DNA from: a virus
Lineage: Duplodnaviria > Caudoviricetes
DNA: 63,496 bases
Direction: 5' to 3' (one strand)
IMG/VR virus record: IMGVR_UViG_3300012920_000036
Location: 1 to 63,496 of that record
The stretch's first letter is position 1. Each line of letters begins with the position of its first letter. Shown one piece after another: positions 6,194 to 29,561 of the stretch. The notes beneath the pieces are model-generated. The model was not told where the DNA came from and searched no databases. It saw only the letters and a program-made list of their open reading frames with translations. Made by a program: the position numbers and the translations under genes.

Positions 6194-6349
6194 ATGAAAG
6201 AAAAAAAAGAGAAAACCACGGGCTTTGCGTATGACAAGGAAACAGGGAAGTTAATAAACGCTGGGGCAAAGTTGCACTTAAACGGTAAGGGAAAGCCCAG
6301 CATTAGCAACTTCCTTCGCGCAGCCGTTCACCAGTATTTTGAGAAATAA
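6194..6349 (+). CDS. Small RHH-like regulator in the Cro position (51 aa)
   Basis: Translated by hand: MKEKKEKTTGFAYD...PSISNFLRAAVHQYFEK; TAATG-coupled to the next gene. Confidence 0.65.
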   Translation: MKEKKEKTTGFAYDKETGKLINAGAKLHLNGKGKPSISNFLRAAVHQYFEK

Positions 6350-6600
6350 TGGGTTGGAACGATTTGCAGATAAAAGTTAAGCCAGAAACTCCCAAGGCAA
6401 TCAGAGGCATCGAGGAGATGTTCACCATTAAGGAGTTAACTTCCCTGACAAAAAAAGGAGCATCTACTTTATACCGACTTATGGAACCTTGGGATGTGAG
6501 AAAGACGAGCGACATAGGGCCGAATGGTGAAATCCCTTACAAAAAAGTCGGAGGCTCCACCAGATTTACAGCAGAAACAGTAAGACAACTTACAACATAA
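6349..6600 (+). CDS. Excisionase-like winged HTH protein
   Basis: FTIKEL...STLYRL...IPYKKVGGSTRF (HTH_17/Xis pattern). Confidence 0.7.
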   Translation: MGWNDLQIKVKPETPKAIRGIEEMFTIKELTSLTKKGASTLYRLMEPWDVRKTSDIGPNGEIPYKKVGGSTRFTAETVRQLTT

Positions 6601-6603
6601 ACT

Positions 6604-7476
6604 ATGTTCAAGAAAGCAACAAAAGAGCAGGCCAAATTACGAATGGCATTAGCAGGAGTCTCCGGCTCCGGTAAAACATACACCAGTCTTTTATTTGGAA
6701 CCACCATTGGAAAGACTGCATTCATCGACACCGAGAAAGGGTCAGCGTCAAAATATGCTGACCTTTTTGATTTCGATGTATTGGAACTGGATGACCACCA
6801 TCCAGACAAGTTTGTCGAAGCGATCAAGGCGGCAGAGTCGGATTACGATTGTGTTGTCATCGATTCGCTTACTCACGCTTGGAACGGGAAAAATGGCTGT
6901 CTTGAATTGGCAGACCAGGAATCAGCAAGGAGTAAGAGCAACAACAGTTACATTGCTTGGAAAAAGATCACTCCTATCCATGACCGGCTTATCGCCTCAA
7001 TCCTGTCGGCTGAATGTCACGTCATCGCGACGATGCGACAAAAGCAACAGTATGAGGCAGGCAAAAACGAACAGGGAAGATTTACCGTAGCTCGTCTGGG
7101 AATGGCTCCTGTTCAGCGGGATTCAGTCGAATACGAGTTCGACATAATGGGCGAGATGAACATCGACAACCAGTTGGTGATTACCAAAAGCCGAATGGCT
7201 TCATTGTCCGGCAAGGTATTCACAAAACCAGACGCTGAAATAGCAAAGCAAATCATGGCTTGGTGTGGTAGCGGAGACGCCCCGAAAGAGTATTCGCTAG
7301 ACATCGCACTACAAACTCAGCTTGAGCCAATTATCAGCGGCAAAGAGGTTAATCTCGATAACTGGTTGAAAAAGGAAAAGCACATCACGACTAAACAGAC
7401 GTGGAGGAACATGCCGCACAGCATTGCGGAGAGAGCCATCAAAAACTCTGAAAAGTTCCTAGCAGCAATATCGTAA
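6604..7476 (+). CDS. AAA_24 ATPase, Sak4-like ssDNA annealing protein
   Basis: GVSGSGKT Walker A, IDTE, VVIDSLTHAW, EYEFD. Confidence 0.85.
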   Translation: MFKKATKEQAKLRMALAGVSGSGKTYTSLLFGTTIGKTAFIDTEKGSASKYADLFDFDVLELDDHHPDKFVEAIKAAESDYDCVVIDSLTHAWNGKNGCLELADQESARSKSNNSYIAWKKITPIHDRLIASILSAECHVIATMRQKQQYEAGKNEQGRFTVARLGMAPVQRDSVEYEFDIMGEMNIDNQLVITKSRMASLSGKVFTKPDAEIAKQIMAWCGSGDAPKEYSLDIALQTQLEPIISGKEVNLDNWLKKEKHITTKQTWRNMPHSIAERAIKNSEKFLAAIS

Positions 7477-7482
7477 AAATTT

Positions 7483-7633
7483 GGGCAGGAATAGAGTCGA
7501 GAGGAGAACTCCGAACGAGGCTTGCATATGGCATATAAATACAACGACGAGACTCCGTTGTACCGCATAGATGGTTGGACATAAATGCATATGCCATCCC
7601 ACCTAAGTGCAGCCTTTTGATGAACACCTGTCC
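7483..7633 (+). ncRNA. Putative multibranch structured RNA element
   Basis: Nested stems GGGCAGG/CCTGTCC, AGGCT(T)GCA/TGCAGCCT, TGGCATAT/ATATGCCA, TACAACG/CGTTGTA. Confidence 0.45.
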
Positions 7634-7647
7634 TATTTAATTTAATA

Positions 7648-7881
7648 ATGGCTAACTCAAACCAAGAAACATTTCAGCAATCAGAGGCTGGGCATTACAG
7701 CTACCACTCTCTGGATAACCCCTTTGGCTATAATGAAATTAGTAAAAAAGTTTCACGCAAATTAAGGCTCAACATTTTAAAGGGGAGGTGGTCACCGGAC
7801 ACAAGCGACGACATGCAGATGTTGCGTAAATTCAAGGAAAGCAAACTCACCCCAGAGAAGTTTTTGGAAACGTGGAAGTAA
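7648..7881 (+). CDS. Hypothetical protein
   Basis: ORF track. Confidence 0.55.
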   Translation: MANSNQETFQQSEAGHYSYHSLDNPFGYNEISKKVSRKLRLNILKGRWSPDTSDDMQMLRKFKESKLTPEKFLETWK

Positions 7882-7887
7882 AAAAAT

Positions 7888-8115
7888 ATGGCAGCTTCAG
7901 ACTTATCAGAATCGGGCAACTCAGGGGAAAAAATGGAAGAAAGGGGTCACCACCCACACAGCCCCAGCACATGGGCGAAAATAAAAAAGTGCAGCTTGTA
8001 CAAGAGCGACCCAACGCCAAGTAAGTACGCTCTGATCGGAACTCAAAGCCATGAACTTTTGGAGGAAAAGTTAAAGTCATACAACAAGAGTGTCCGTAAA
8101 AATAACATTGAATGA
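7888..8115 (+). CDS. N-terminal fragment of Cas4-like/DUF2800 exonuclease
   Basis: HxxxSPS...C...A.IGT..HELLE motif typical of the family N-terminus. Confidence 0.7.
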   Translation: MAASDLSESGNSGEKMEERGHHPHSPSTWAKIKKCSLYKSDPTPSKYALIGTQSHELLEEKLKSYNKSVRKNNIE

Positions 8116-8566
8116 AGGCGAGACGGCTGTCGCATCAGTCTCCGCAATTCTGCGCTACACAGTCAACAGAGCCTCTGGAGTTGTTGACCGTAAGGGTGGG
8201 CCGCAATCGTGTTGGAAAACAGACCTAAACGGTGTCGGTGCTGAAATGGCATTCGCTAAATACAAGAACCTCTATCCAGATTTTTCCACCAACCCACGGC
8301 AGGGGGGAAGCGACTTTACGTTAATCAATGGTGATGAGGTTGACATTAAATGCACCCAGTACAAGACCGGCAAACTGATCGTCAACAAGGACAAGAACAC
8401 CTCCAAAACTAAATATTATATTTTAGTAATAGGAGAAGTTCCGACATTTGAAATTGTGGGATACGCCACAGCGGATGAGGTCTTCAAGAATGAAAACCTC
8501 AAGGAGATTTATGGCCGTGAATGTTACCAAATAGAACAATGCAATCTGCACCAAATACAGGGGTAG
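8090..8566 (+). CDS. Inserted PD-(D/E)XK-type endonuclease (putative homing endonuclease)
   Basis: GxxAE...DF...VDIK motif; overlaps both exonuclease fragments. Confidence 0.65.
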   Translation: MSVKITLNEGETAVASVSAILRYTVNRASGVVDRKGGPQSCWKTDLNGVGAEMAFAKYKNLYPDFSTNPRQGGSDFTLINGDEVDIKCTQYKTGKLIVNKDKNTSKTKYYILVIGEVPTFEIVGYATADEVFKNENLKEIYGRECYQIEQCNLHQIQG

Positions 8567-9372
8567 AGTGGGCATACGAGTACGTCCTCGATGTCGCTAA
8601 AGGCGAGGAGTGCCTGCTTGAGGAGAACGTCAGTTATGAACGTGACGGTGAAGTTCTTTACAGCGGATACGCCGACGTGATCGTTGGCAACCACATCCTA
8701 GATTACAAGGAATCATCTGAAGGCTACTACCGCCCACAGCTAAACGGATATGCGGCTGCGTGGATGCAGAAAACATTTAAAGAGGAACTGACGTGCCATG
8801 TCCTTTACGGACAAACCCAACGCGCCGATGTGTGGACAATCACCGCTGATGAAGCCGATGAATATGTCACATCAATTTTTGAGATAGTTAATTCAGAAAA
8901 CAAAACGCCGACAGCAAATGAGTACTGCAAGTGGTGTGCAAATTTATCCGGTTGCAGCGGTGTTAATGAACTCATGGTCAGCGCAATCCAAGAAGGTTTA
9001 ATAGTAAACTTCGATTGCCCAGAAAGATTATCCGCAGCCAAGAAGCTCGTTCCAATTTTCAAGGCGTGGATAGACGGCGTGGACAAGCTGACCAAATCCA
9101 CACTTGAAAGCGGAGGCGAGGTTCCTGGCTACAGGCTATCGGAACGCAACGGTAGACAATTTGTAAGTAACGATTTTTTTGCAGAGGTGGCAATGCAAAG
9201 CACCGTTAGGAATTACGACATCACAAAAGTTTTGGAACAATGCAGCATCACAGTTCCTAAAGCCAAGGCGTTGTTTAAGGACATAACTGGAAATGATTTA
9301 CCGCAGGAGTTTTTGCCAAGGAGCAATAAGACTTTTGCCGTATTAGCAGATAAGACTAAAAAAATAGATTAG
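8521..9372 (+). CDS. C-terminal part of Cas4-like/DUF2800 PD-(D/E)XK exonuclease
   Basis: E...GYAD...ILDYK, QLxxYA, CKWC-x5-C, G.EVPGY.L. Confidence 0.8.
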   Translation: MLPNRTMQSAPNTGVEWAYEYVLDVAKGEECLLEENVSYERDGEVLYSGYADVIVGNHILDYKESSEGYYRPQLNGYAAAWMQKTFKEELTCHVLYGQTQRADVWTITADEADEYVTSIFEIVNSENKTPTANEYCKWCANLSGCSGVNELMVSAIQEGLIVNFDCPERLSAAKKLVPIFKAWIDGVDKLTKSTLESGGEVPGYRLSERNGRQFVSNDFFAEVAMQSTVRNYDITKVLEQCSITVPKAKALFKDITGNDLPQEFLPRSNKTFAVLADKTKKID

Positions 9373-9373
9373 T

Positions 9374-9772
9374 ATGAGTAACTACAACAGAACGGTGTTA
9401 ACCGGACACCTCACAAGCAAACCGGAAACCAAGGAACTGCCAAGCGGAACTACGGTTACAGAATGTGACATAGCTGTTAACAAGTCATGGAAGGACAAGA
9501 GTGGCGAGTGGCAGGAGAAGGTAAGTTTTGTTCCGTGCAAAATATGGGGTGAGCGTGGGCCAGCTATTGCTGAACGATTCGACAAGGGACAACACGTTCT
9601 GATCGAAGGCGAGATCGAGATGGATAGCTGGGATGACAAGGAGACGGGCAAGAAAAGAACAAAGCTATCCATCATCATTACAAAGATGCTGAAGCTGGGA
9701 AGGCTTGGAGGAGGCGAACCAAACGAGGCTCCTAAAGCTGCACCGAAAAAAGACGACGACGTACCTTTCTAA
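9374..9772 (+). CDS. ssb: Single-stranded DNA-binding protein
   Basis: OB-fold motifs; acidic DDDVPF tail. Confidence 0.95.
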   Translation: MSNYNRTVLTGHLTSKPETKELPSGTTVTECDIAVNKSWKDKSGEWQEKVSFVPCKIWGERGPAIAERFDKGQHVLIEGEIEMDSWDDKETGKKRTKLSIIITKMLKLGRLGGGEPNEAPKAAPKKDDDVPF

Positions 9773-9789
9773 TTTGCCTGTAAATAAAA

Positions 9790-10113
9790 ATGATTCATCT
9801 GGTGATACAGGGGCATGGTCACATCATAAATTTCAAGAACTGCAAAGCTTGTTGGAGGAATATGTTGGTCACAGTCCCAAAGGCAAAAAACCAGATGAAG
9901 GCGATAGTGCAAGATTTCGTGTCACAATTGATCTCCTTGTATCAGACAACCGACGCCGCGACCCAGACGGGGCAATCAATACAATCATGGATTGCCTCGT
10001 CTCTGCCGTCCGACGATTCGGTGAGGGAGATCGACCAAATACTCGTTCGCGTAAAGCGAGTTCCAAAAGGAAAAGAGGGAGCAATCATAACGCTAAATAA
10101 AATCAACCAATGA
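9790..10113 (+). CDS. RusA-related protein (central catalytic motif lies in the -1 frame)
   Basis: N-terminal FKN and C-terminal DDS..I...EGAIITL resemble RusA; RRRDPDG...DCL appears in the overlapping frame. Confidence 0.6.
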   Translation: MIHLVIQGHGHIINFKNCKACWRNMLVTVPKAKNQMKAIVQDFVSQLISLYQTTDAATQTGQSIQSWIASSLPSDDSVREIDQILVRVKRVPKGKEGAIITLNKINQ

Positions 10114-10117
10114 ATTT

Positions 10118-10312
10118 AGCCCCACCCGTTCATAGTACAGATCAAATCAGACGAGCTTGGTTCCGCACGTCTGCCATTTGTTTTTTGGTGTTTTCCAAAT
10201 GGTTAAGGGTGGTCTGTGGGTGGGGCTATCAATTTAGTGGAACAACCCAGCGCCGTTGCTGGACGCCACTAAACCCCATGCAGGGGGCGGCTAATCCATC
10301 CTGCATGGGGAT
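10118..10312 (+). ncRNA. Putative structured RNA: one multibranch domain plus two hairpins
   Basis: AGCCCCACCC/GGGTGGGGCT enclosing ACAGATCA/TGGTCTGT, CAGACG/CGTCTG, CCATTTG/CAAATGG; then TTAGTGG/CCACTAA and CCCCATGCAGG/CCTGCATGGGG. Confidence 0.5.
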
Positions 10313-28514: not shown

Positions 28515-29561
28515 ATGGTAAACAAAACGGGTGTGGATTGTCCCACCACGACTCACATCTCTTTATGCACCGGCTGTGCAGGGCTTGACCTCGGACTACG
28601 AGCAGTTATCCCATCTCTTCGCACAGTACTTTATGTGGAGATCGAAGCCTTCAATTGCTCCAACTTGGCGCAGAAGATGCAACACAACTCCTTGGATGAA
28701 GCACCTATTTGGACTGATCTTACATCCGTCCCTGTGGAAAACTTTCGAGACAAGGTATTCGCAATCTCTGGAGGCTATCCATGTCAGCCCTTCTCATTTT
28801 GTGGAAGCAGACAAGGCGAAGAAGACGAAGGAGGCAGACACCTCTGGCCGTTTTGTCGCAGAACAATTCGAGCTATTCGACCTGTCTTCTGTATGTGGGA
28901 GAATGTCGAAGGACACATCACGCTTGGACTGTCAACAGTCATTAGCGATATGGAACACGATGGTTACCGCGCAACGTGGGGATTATTCTCAGCGCAAGTC
29001 GATGCAGATGCTCCGCACCAGAGAAAGAGAGTGTTCATCCTTGGCTTGCGGGAAGATGTCGATGCCGAAATCTTCAAGGACATCTGTCCAGAACTGGCCG
29101 ACGCCGACAACTCAAGACTGGAGAGATGGCTCGTCGAGGCGGAACGAGGACAACCTAGCGAGGGGTGGCAACCATGCAGTCAGCCTACAGCACAAGGTGC
29201 AGGCGGAGAACTGGCCGACACCAACGGTCAGCGACTACAAGGGCAGCGGCCCGATGACTATGAGGGACGACGGGGTAACAAGGATGTGCCGTCTGGACTA
29301 CGCAGTCGAACAGTCTGGCCAGCCAGACCAGGTGAGCCGCAAGAATCCTGGGAACCACCAAGAACAATTGAAGTCGGTGAGACTGAATCCGAGATGGGTG
29401 GAGACTTTGATGGGCTTGCCGGTGGGCTGGGTGATGCCGAGTTGTACGTCTCCTGTGACAATCGAGTAGACGAGTTACGAACATTGGGCAACTCAGTTGT
29501 CCCGCAGTCTGCTAGTGCTGCGTTTCTTCATCTAGCAAAAAGACTAATCCAGAATAAATAA
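28515..29561 (+). CDS. DNA (cytosine-5) methyltransferase, alpha-type chain
   Basis: Motifs I (SLCTGCAG), IV (GYPCQPFS), VI (ENV), VIII (QRKRVF), X (LGNSVVP); motif IX absent. Confidence 0.9.
   Translation: MVNKTGVDCPTTTHISLCTGCAGLDLGLRAVIPSLRTVLYVEIEAFNCSNLAQKMQHNSLDEAPIWTDLTSVPVENFRDKVFAISGGYPCQPFSFCGSRQGEEDEGGRHLWPFCRRTIRAIRPVFCMWENVEGHITLGLSTVISDMEHDGYRATWGLFSAQVDADAPHQRKRVFILGLREDVDAEIFKDICPELADADNSRLERWLVEAERGQPSEGWQPCSQPTAQGAGGELADTNGQRLQGQRPDDYEGRRGNKDVPSGLRSRTVWPARPGEPQESWEPPRTIEVGETESEMGGDFDGLAGGLGDAELYVSCDNRVDELRTLGNSVVPQSASAAFLHLAKRLIQNK
28531..29469 (+). CDS. Overlapping +1-frame ORF, putative MTase beta chain (TRD and motif IX)
   Basis: 312 codons open inside the MTase gene; two WPTP repeats and RLNPRWVETLMGLPVGW. 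Confidence 0.7.
   Translation: MWIVPPRLTSLYAPAVQGLTSDYEQLSHLFAQYFMWRSKPSIAPTWRRRCNTTPWMKHLFGLILHPSLWKTFETRYSQSLEAIHVSPSHFVEADKAKKTKEADTSGRFVAEQFELFDLSSVCGRMSKDTSRLDCQQSLAIWNTMVTAQRGDYSQRKSMQMLRTRERECSSLACGKMSMPKSSRTSVQNWPTPTTQDWRDGSSRRNEDNLARGGNHAVSLQHKVQAENWPTPTVSDYKGSGPMTMRDDGVTRMCRLDYAVEQSGQPDQVSRKNPGNHQEQLKSVRLNPRWVETLMGLPVGWVMPSCTSPVTIE

Follow-up and report, generated by a model that had tools for sequence, protein, structure and literature searches.

In T4-like phages, enzyme genes split around free-standing endonuclease genes are known for ribonucleotide reductase, for topoisomerase and for DNA polymerase. For Aeh1 nrdA, a free-standing endonuclease gene, mobE, is described between the collinear gene halves nrdA-a and nrdA-b; neither an intron nor an intein is involved, and the two polypeptides made from the halves reassemble, with short tails at the break encoded at the ends of the element (PMC3045599, PMC2988022), and these tails are needed for assembly (PMC3045599). 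T4 gene 39/60 with mobA is another split enzyme gene with an endonuclease, and the same review states that gene 43 of phage 25 may have been split before a seg gene invaded it (PMC2988022). An SbcD-like exonuclease gene split by a Vsr-like open reading frame (ORF), without inteins, was described from marine or aquatic metagenomic phage loci (PMC2677866). Here, we describe an exonuclease gene in pieces at positions 7888–9372 of a 63,496-base IMG/VR virus record (IMGVR_UViG_3300012920_000036; completeness estimate, 89%), the whole of which is called the window. N-terminal and C-terminal parts of a DUF2800-type nuclease (the N chain and the C chain) flank and overlap a small PD-(D/E)XK ORF (the insert). 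We give a probability of roughly 65% to the reading that the locus encodes a two-chain exonuclease with a homing-type nuclease cassette at the cistron junction.

The phage carrying the window is a member of a marine phage clade. The three-ORF anatomy proposed in the initial annotation was borne out by reading of the ORFs and the sequence, and its parts are as follows (aa, amino acids; nt, nucleotides):

7888..8115, + strand: exonuclease N chain, 75 aa from the ATG at 7888 or 60 aa from the ATG at 7933

8090..8566, + strand: insert ORF, PD-(D/E)XK endonuclease-like, of the DUF5843/phrog_18407 type; 158 aa, GTG start, TAG stop at 8564–8566, +1 frame

8090..8115, + strand: overlap of the N-chain 3′ end and the insert 5′ end; 26 nt, same geometry in 10/10 loci

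8539..8566, + strand: overlap of the C-chain ATG and first codons with the insert 3′ end; 28 nt, ATG and TAG kept in 10/10 loci

8539..9372, + strand: exonuclease C chain, 277 aa, same frame as the N chain

The N ORF contains HSPS...C...GTQSHELLE and ends at the TGA at 8113–8115, and its last eight codons fall inside the insert ORF. Either of its two possible starts is used among relatives. The C ORF contains the motifs GYAD, DYK, QLNGY and CKWC-x5-C. It is open from 8521/8539, as was first annotated; a start at 8521 is unlikely, and the ATG at 8539, common to all relatives, is most likely the start codon.

The locus is like Aeh1 in having a free-standing endonuclease-like gene between collinear halves of an enzyme gene, with no intron or intein, and it would also be like it in the reassembly of separate polypeptides with short tails at the break. 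Unlike in Aeh1 (ribonucleotide reductase and an HNH endonuclease), the host gene is a DUF2800 four-Cys exonuclease, and the PD-(D/E)XK/DUF5843 insert overlaps both halves. Moreover, a close allele without the interruption is not known for this locus, and the break would place the ligands of a metal-cluster site on both chains. As for gene 43 of phage 25, some forms of the split gene have an endonuclease gene at the break and others have none, here across lineages, so that the endonuclease may have come into a gene that was split before. However, the enzyme and the endonuclease family are different (GIY-YIG in phage 25), and the insert-free split was found in distant lineages and not in a close relative. 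As in the SbcD/Vsr case, a repair nuclease gene is broken by a free-standing ORF of restriction-enzyme-like fold, with short extra residues at the break; in contrast to the "fractured genes" described in the same paper (PMC2677866), no split-intein halves are present. The insert has a canonical E/PD/DxK set, unlike the Vsr-like ORF, and the fold matches listed did not include Vsr.

The C chain matched Pfam PF10926 (DUF2800) with 27 bits, above the cut-off of 21 (E-value 3.3e-6; profile positions 84–340 of 368), and by this gathering score it belongs to the family; its close relatives bear a precomputed PF10926 annotation. At E-values up to 1, Pfam gave only DUF2800 and a weak SesA match for the C chain, and no match for the N chain. 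The description "Cas4-like exonuclease" in the initial annotation holds as a resemblance. However, the family is DUF2800, and the Cas4/DUF83 model was not matched at E-values up to 1, which places the gene outside Cas4 proper. The PD-(D/E)XK catalytic set (D46, D55-x-K57 and Q67..Y71) was invariant in 30 aligned family members. The C chain also carries C130-x2-C133-x5-C139, whose three Cys were invariant in 30/30 members, and a C-terminal helical domain. A C-chain profile, compared with 1.84 billion representative proteins, gave 894 matches at E-values up to 0.001. Among the 150 matches listed, most were 320–390 aa long, with the C-chain match starting at about residue 43–115, and 13 were C-only by gene call (match within 20 residues of the C chain's start). 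Close relatives were collected by a word-indexed search (5-residue words common with the query) of a 5.8-billion-protein library. Among 592 candidates (155–496 aa), all six relatives that it gave were 277–283 aa long; only five other close-relative clusters were seen, of 277–278 aa, and these begin at the same MQ/MP...GVEW. Phage isolates yielded just distant uninterrupted exonucleases (Akkermansia phages at 24% identity and three others), and two scans of bacterial genome contigs, one for the C chain and one for the insert, each with its own alignment, gave no relative.

Because the N chain is short, it was tested separately with its own profile, which was built solely from the N-terminal parts of 18 uninterrupted homologues. 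The frame at 7882–8112 was the best of the 1163 stop-to-stop frames in the window (E 1e-9; runner-up, 0.028), a match better than chance would give. In the alignment, HHPHSPS...C...GTQSHELLE of the window corresponded to hhPtrPSslPalskCPkyesge...GtrrHeaLe of the profile. The N chain contains HHPHSPS, an invariant Cys and the GT.SH..LE helix. Both chains also matched phrog_69 (exonuclease) in the expected order, the N chain at profile positions 80–140 (E 0.0019) and the C chain at 173–426 (E 1.7e-15). A first MAFFT alignment with the exonuclease of Akkermansia phage Chambord misplaced the short N chain, and the 18-sequence profile settled the register; in hhalign, N residues 10–45 matched residues 52–87 of the Chambord exonuclease weakly (E 0.035).

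An alignment with uninterrupted homologues had been suggested in the initial annotation as a means to define the insertion point. In the 30-member alignment, the N termini of the uninterrupted proteins shared the N-chain motif, and the break fell in a gappy linker of variable length between this motif and the first C-chain motif (V.WA..Y). The stretch that runs from the conserved His up to the GVEW Gly measured 27 residues in the split protein (20 on the N chain, counted after the His, and 7 on the C chain) and 23 in the uninterrupted P0019. The alignment indicates that no part of the exonuclease is missing at the break, which follows the first helix and falls in a loose linker. Two ORFs, with a 158-aa ORF in another frame between them, encode the motif and the core, which most DUF2800 relatives have in a single polypeptide. 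These two ORFs are collinear with the uninterrupted homologue and nothing is missing, as in genes in pieces; the profiles and the alignment agree with the annotated view of collinear halves, here those of a DUF2800/Cas4-AddB-like four-Cys nuclease.

Eleven related loci were obtained from viral and metagenome contigs, nine of them with enough upstream DNA; L022 (40 nt upstream) and L023 (an apparent chimera) were excluded from the count. The N/insert/C layout was found in 9/9 informative loci, and the overlaps (26 and 28 nt), the starts (GTG and ATG) and the stops (TGA and TAG) were identical. In the diverged loci, identity to the window was 60–67% for the C chain, 62–69% for the insert and 67–81% for the N chain; two close copies were about 97–99% identical. 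Contigs about 94–95% identical to the window, from four runs of four studies, bridged both junctions with no joint and no insertion or deletion inside 7888–9372, and such contigs show the presence and not the absence of an allele. The match in L023:1-1437 begins at C-chain residue 53 and is joined to unrelated AT-rich DNA in an 1800-base contig of coverage 1.6, which we take to be chimeric.

The ratio of nonsynonymous to synonymous differences (pN/pS, Nei-Gojobori counts) was calculated for six representative lineages for the insert and the C chain, and for five for the N core (L021 had no upstream DNA). With pS at 0.71–0.75, which is near saturation, pN/pS came to 0.18 (N core), 0.235 (insert core) and 0.247 (C core). 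Purifying selection acts on all three ORFs, most strongly on the N chain. This answers the check proposed in the initial annotation for a decaying N fragment (dN/dS near 1), as no decay was found. In seven sequences the N chain had 34 invariant columns, including Cys20, His40 and Glu44. The first overlap had a pN/pS of 0.23 in the insert frame and 2.7 in the N frame. The constraint there tracks the insert frame and not the N frame, and therefore the last eight N codons appear to be free as protein. The codons for L-K-E-Y-N of the N chain were compared at window positions 8066–8092 and at the corresponding place in L003 and L016–L021. In 6/10 loci they are TTAAAGGAGTA, with an AAGGAG 10 nt before the GTG of the insert; this AAGGAG was lost in the window's own lineage (AAGTCA/AAATCA).

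A complex of the N and C chains with a 4Fe-4S cluster was predicted from the two family alignments. The score was 0.77, compared with 0.16 for the best of three controls; the score mark applied was reached by 58/80 solved complexes and by 2/110 mismatched pairs. Three runs shared at least 90% of contacts, and the predicted local distance difference test (pLDDT) of the partner was at least 72. In the predicted complex, N residues 14–27 (including Cys20) lay against C residues 122–139 (including Cys130, Cys133 and Cys139), and N residues around His40 and Glu44 contacted the C-chain core. The multimer model called for by the initial annotation thus supported binding of the two chains, with the N-terminal Cys placed beside the three C-terminal ones. 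The model indicates that the pieces resemble two parts of one fold, and does not demonstrate binding in the cell.

One N-terminal Cys plus three C-terminal Cys on a RecB-type core is the "iron staple" arrangement described for AddB and Cas4 (PMC3466216). The same arrangement was found here, with C-x2-C-x5-C on the C chain and Cys20 invariant in 7/7 N chains. Unlike in AddB and Cas4, which are single chains, the first Cys is on a separate polypeptide, and the family is DUF2800 and not Cas4. In the relevant part of that study, every single Cys-to-Ala change turned Sso0001 insoluble (PMC3466216). The annotated division of the Fe-S ligands between the halves stands as far as the Cys positions are concerned, which are split between the chains and adjacent in the model; the 4Fe-4S cluster is putative. 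On the whole, the conserved two-ORF arrangement most likely yields a working two-chain exonuclease, and it is somewhat more probable that a cluster or metal bridges both chains through the divided Cys ligands than that it does not.

The insert showed invariant E52, D64 (in YPD), D85 and K87 (in IDIK) in ten relatives of 43–69% identity. An AF2 model from the ten-relative alignment had a pLDDT of 85. Foldseek gave nothing at E 0.001 or better with this model, and its best rows were the restriction enzymes NhoI and Eco15I. By VIA-align, the Z scores were 7.3 for NhoI, 6.8 for Hjc, 6.7 for DpnI, 6.4 for I-Ssp6803I, 6.3 for Eco15I and 6.1 for fusellovirus D212, and the top ten rows were all PD-(D/E)XK nucleases. 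The motif set and the predicted fold agree in this respect with the annotated PD-(D/E)XK nature of the ORF. The intron-encoded I-Ssp6803I (PDB 2ost) has a similar length (148 aa, compared with 158 aa for the insert) and the PD-(D/E)XK fold (root-mean-square deviation of 3.6 over 107 residues). However, the identity was 8% with no relation at the sequence level, NhoI, Hjc and DpnI matched as well or better, and the insert is free-standing, whereas I-Ssp6803I is described as lying in an intron (PMC2677866).

At the sequence level, the insert matched phrog_18407 (function unknown) with an E-value of 2.6e-16. Its PF19161 (DUF5843) score was 16.8 bits, below the cut-off of 25, and the relatives in L007 (36 bits) and L006 (31.6 bits) passed it. 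The nearest Atlas clusters were viral, with PF19161 in 19–32% of members. No PDB sequence matched the insert below E 0.02, NCBIfam gave no match for the insert and its relatives, and a literature search found no paper on DUF5843. Relatives of the insert at 28–41% identity were free-standing genes at varied places in replication modules, and no split gene was seen among them. The sister phages L043 and L044 had an insert copy of 38–45% identity (E 1.6e-38 and 8e-24) located 1.2–2.2 kb downstream of the exonuclease, after the SSB gene and small ORFs, and in L042 this slot was occupied by a T5orf172/MUG113 gene. Within the window's viral record, no second copy of the insert was found. The T4 free-standing endonuclease genes segF, segC and mobA are described as overlapping the upstream gene by 11–23 bp (PMC2988022). 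The apparent site-to-site movement of the insert family and its overlap with the upstream gene would match such descriptions.

Beside some of these relatives, other genes of interest were observed. DNA methyltransferase genes adjoined the insert relatives in L013 (2884–4136; DPPY type, directly downstream) and L043 (4150–5915; C5 type, GGYPCQPFS, upstream), and no methyltransferase gene was beside the relatives in L011, L014 and L044. These neighbors hint at a restriction-like role for some members of the insert family. In L006:1394-1804, a 136-aa ORF with a LAGLIDADG-like motif YMAGYFDGDGCV, recognized by eye only, lies beside the insert relative and is followed by a 234-aa ORF; the L006 neighborhood is rich in endonuclease-type genes.

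The model we propose is as follows. The recombination exonuclease, a DUF2800 RecB-like PD-(D/E)XK nuclease, would be made as two polypeptides. The N chain (60–75 aa) would give the first Cys and the conserved GT..H..E helix, and the C chain (277 aa) the C-x2-C-x5-C loop together with the catalytic Asp, Asp-x-Lys and Gln..Tyr motifs. The chains would assemble non-covalently, and a metal site, probably a 4Fe-4S cluster, would be ligated from both chains and thus clamp them together. The enzyme may act with the Sak4-like annealing protein and SSB encoded beside it, resecting DNA ends for recombination. The insert gene would be read from the same transcript in the +1 frame. It may represent a free-standing mobile nuclease cassette of the homing type that settled at the junction in the ancestor of the marine phage clade and has since been inherited vertically, with selection for an active protein.

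Several points weigh against this reading. The complex prediction may pass by likeness to solved single-chain relatives (AddB and Cas4). DUF3799, a related four-Cys nuclease, is described as binding zinc instead (PMC3466216). The first Cys was replaced by Ser (..SP[RK][FWY]..), with C-x2-C-x5-C kept, in seven uninterrupted relatives of the alignment (P0019, P0020, P0024, P0029, P0038, P0043 and P0047), and therefore the fourth ligand is not indispensable in the family, being either dispensable or replaced. No Shine-Dalgarno-like sequence was present before the C-chain ATG in any locus, and no RNA runs carrying 7600–9500 were listed. As for the insert, its fold Z scores of 6–7 are middling, with Hjc resolvases and restriction enzymes equally close. 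It has just 158 aa and no separate DNA-binding domain, it has co-diverged with its flanks and is still under selection, and no empty or insert-free allele was found in ten loci or in the bridging contigs of four runs. The insert, which the initial annotation likened to homing endonucleases, matched no known homing endonuclease family by sequence. On this evidence a homing nature of the cassette is plausible, at not quite even odds.

The origin of the break was compared in other lineages. Loci were fetched for two lineages with C-only-looking library matches, and their ORFs were listed. In eight loci (L028–L035), an N ORF of 83–102 aa and a C ORF of 278–281 aa were adjacent in different frames with an overlap of 8–17 nt and no insert; in four representatives, pN/pS was 0.27 for N and 0.30 for C. 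The N (68 aa) and C (293 aa) ORFs of L042 likewise overlapped without an insert. In L037:1279-2474, four ORFs (86, 174, 63 and 61 aa) were located between N and C; the 174-aa ORF had a D...EVK nuclease-like motif, no Pfam or NCBIfam match and no similarity to the window's insert. In L025:2364-2549, the linker contained an in-frame stop and about 100 extra bases, which were absent from the 74%-identical, uninterrupted L026. The exonuclease was also uninterrupted in L027, L038–L041, L043 and L045. Since the linker was split in other lineages without the insert or with other cargo, splitting is recurrent and the insert is not needed for it.

Some of these loci had further peculiarities. The N/C overlap of L042 (2221–3283) contains an A7 run (GGTAAAAAAAGTTGAGG), at which a one-base slip would give an N-C fusion in the register of the uninterrupted L043; the overlap may mark a genuine gene of two cistrons, a frameshift site or an error in the homopolymer. 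The L025 linker holds an overlapping 61-aa ORF with a hydrophobic, membrane-like stretch (LYLVIAGSAAWLYLLYYIAG). In L036 and L037, the C ORF ends after 197 aa. In L044:2282-3389, the exonuclease is continuous over the usual linker and broken later into 232- and 132-aa ORFs in different frames, and its close relative L043 has a whole exonuclease of 383 aa; the late break in L044 reflects either a frameshift or a fault in assembly.

In a quick maximum-likelihood tree built from 44 C domains, the window's clade stayed together (support 100). It grouped with the C-only P0017 and a clade of P0018, L042, P0032 and L043 (support 89, not starred), in which L042 is split without an insert and L043 is whole. 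At least six changes between split and whole were needed on the tree. The genomic context of the C-only P0017, P0018 and P0026 had no match in viral contigs.

Two explanations compete most seriously with the proposed model. The first is that the insert itself broke a contiguous exonuclease gene, as in Aeh1 nrdA/mobE, so that the N tail and the first C codons are derived from the element. The insert ORF indeed includes the first C codons and the last eight N codons, the protein sequence of the N tail is free of constraint (pN/pS 2.7), as expected of read-through into foreign DNA, and the insert is present in every clade member; as a precedent, the tails of Aeh1 NrdA are described as having arisen on mobE insertion (PMC3045599). 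However, the same linker is split without the insert (L028–L035 and L042) or with other cargo (L037). Moreover, the nearest outgroups are mostly split or C-only (P0017, P0018, P0032 and L042), with one whole gene (L043) nested in this group. Fewer changes are therefore needed from an ancestor that was already split, which would be the more economical reading for the window's clade, with the modest support of 89, not starred, from a quick search. The causal role given to the insert in the initial annotation is thus disfavored, though it keeps a sizable minority share of the probability, and entry of the insert into a gene already in two cistrons is slightly favored.

The second explanation, to which we give the same minority share, is that the insert is not selfish and works as a phage nuclease co-expressed with the module, possibly as an Hjc-like resolvase or in a restriction-like role against host or rival DNA. 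Purifying selection with invariant catalytic residues, the failure to find empty alleles, the small size without an extra DNA-binding domain, and the methyltransferase genes beside the relatives in L013 and L043 are all in its favor, and Hjc and the methylation-dependent NhoI and Eco15I match the insert as well as I-Ssp6803I does. However, the position of the insert varies between related phages, with a T5orf172/MUG113 gene in its slot in L042. The same modules contain a separate small nuclease-like gene with an E-V-K motif (L007–L010 and L044), which we take to be Hjc-type. In addition, ordinary genes are seldom placed within the coding line of another enzyme, overlapping both halves.

It is highly improbable that the N piece is a relic, with a C piece that functions by itself or a gene that has lost its function. 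The 13 C-only calls among the 150 family members listed and the seven uninterrupted relatives without the first Cys would agree with it. However, the N core is the most constrained part and keeps its invariant columns despite synonymous saturation, the C chain is under purifying selection, and an N ORF was found just upstream of C-only calls wherever the context was obtained (L025, L028–L035, L037 and L042).

Least probable of all is that splicing of RNA or protein, or a pair of programmed frameshifts through the insert, restores a single exonuclease: the N and C frames are the same and an A5 run is present in the first overlap, but this run is limited to the window's own lineage (3/10 loci; missing in 7/10), no X XXY YYZ heptamer was seen in the second overlap, the insert ORF reaches from the N stop to the C start without a gap and its protein sequence is under constraint from end to end, 12 further stops occur in the N/C frame between the TGA at 8113–8115 and the ATG at 8521, an Rfam scan of 7600–9600 at E-values up to 10 gave three chance-level matches and no intron family, and the 6–8 residues on the N side and about 7 on the C side between the conserved parts and the break are far too short for split-intein halves, with no intein family listed by Pfam. 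The annotated lack of room for an intron was borne out, no intron signal was seen, and inspection of the reading frames offers no apparent route to a single chain.

The two-chain exonuclease proposed here would belong to a recombination module, in which the order of genes is a Sak4-like gene, a 77-aa ORF without known family, the N, insert and C ORFs, SSB, a replication initiator and a DnaB-like helicase. The module genes nearest to the exonuclease with assigned families are as follows:

6604..7476, + strand: Sak4-like single-stranded DNA annealing protein gene, first of the module (phrog_1366, E 5e-78; phrog_124, Sak4-like, E 2.9e-12)

9374..9772, + strand: SSB gene, last of the module (phrog_44, E 2.7e-31)

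In Akkermansia phage Chambord, a Sak4-like gene is followed by the exonuclease in the same order, and the exonuclease there is a single gene of 387 aa. A promoter and terminator scan of 6300–10200 gave sites no more numerous than in shuffles and none between the three ORFs. The window further contains an integrase, a replication module and structural genes. By motif search only, the C5 DNA methyltransferase motif GGYPCQPFS was seen in the ORF at 28515–29561, 20 kb from the insert.

This kind of split gene ("genes in pieces" around a free-standing endonuclease) is already known. A literature search limited to papers without their supplements found no description of a split Cas4-like or DUF2800 nuclease. 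What is new is the host gene (a DUF2800 iron-staple nuclease in a Sak4-SSB module), the putative metal site divided between chains, the insert family and the recurrent break with varying cargo. More speculatively, and rather unlikely as a whole, the linker after the first helix may be a permissive break point at which this exonuclease family has repeatedly become two-chain, with the junction as a landing pad for nuclease cassettes, insertion of the cluster doubling as an assembly step, and DUF5843 as a new family of free-standing PD-(D/E)XK phage homing endonucleases.

The locus offers a natural test of whether a metal cluster can hold a heterodimer together. Because the split is old, selected and recurrent, it also lends itself well to the question of whether mobile nuclease genes cause such breaks or move into those already present. 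It gives a first functional lead for the DUF5843/phrog_18407 phage family. For annotation, it means that a short N-terminal ORF or a "truncated" DUF2800 gene in a phage genome should not be taken for a pseudogene.

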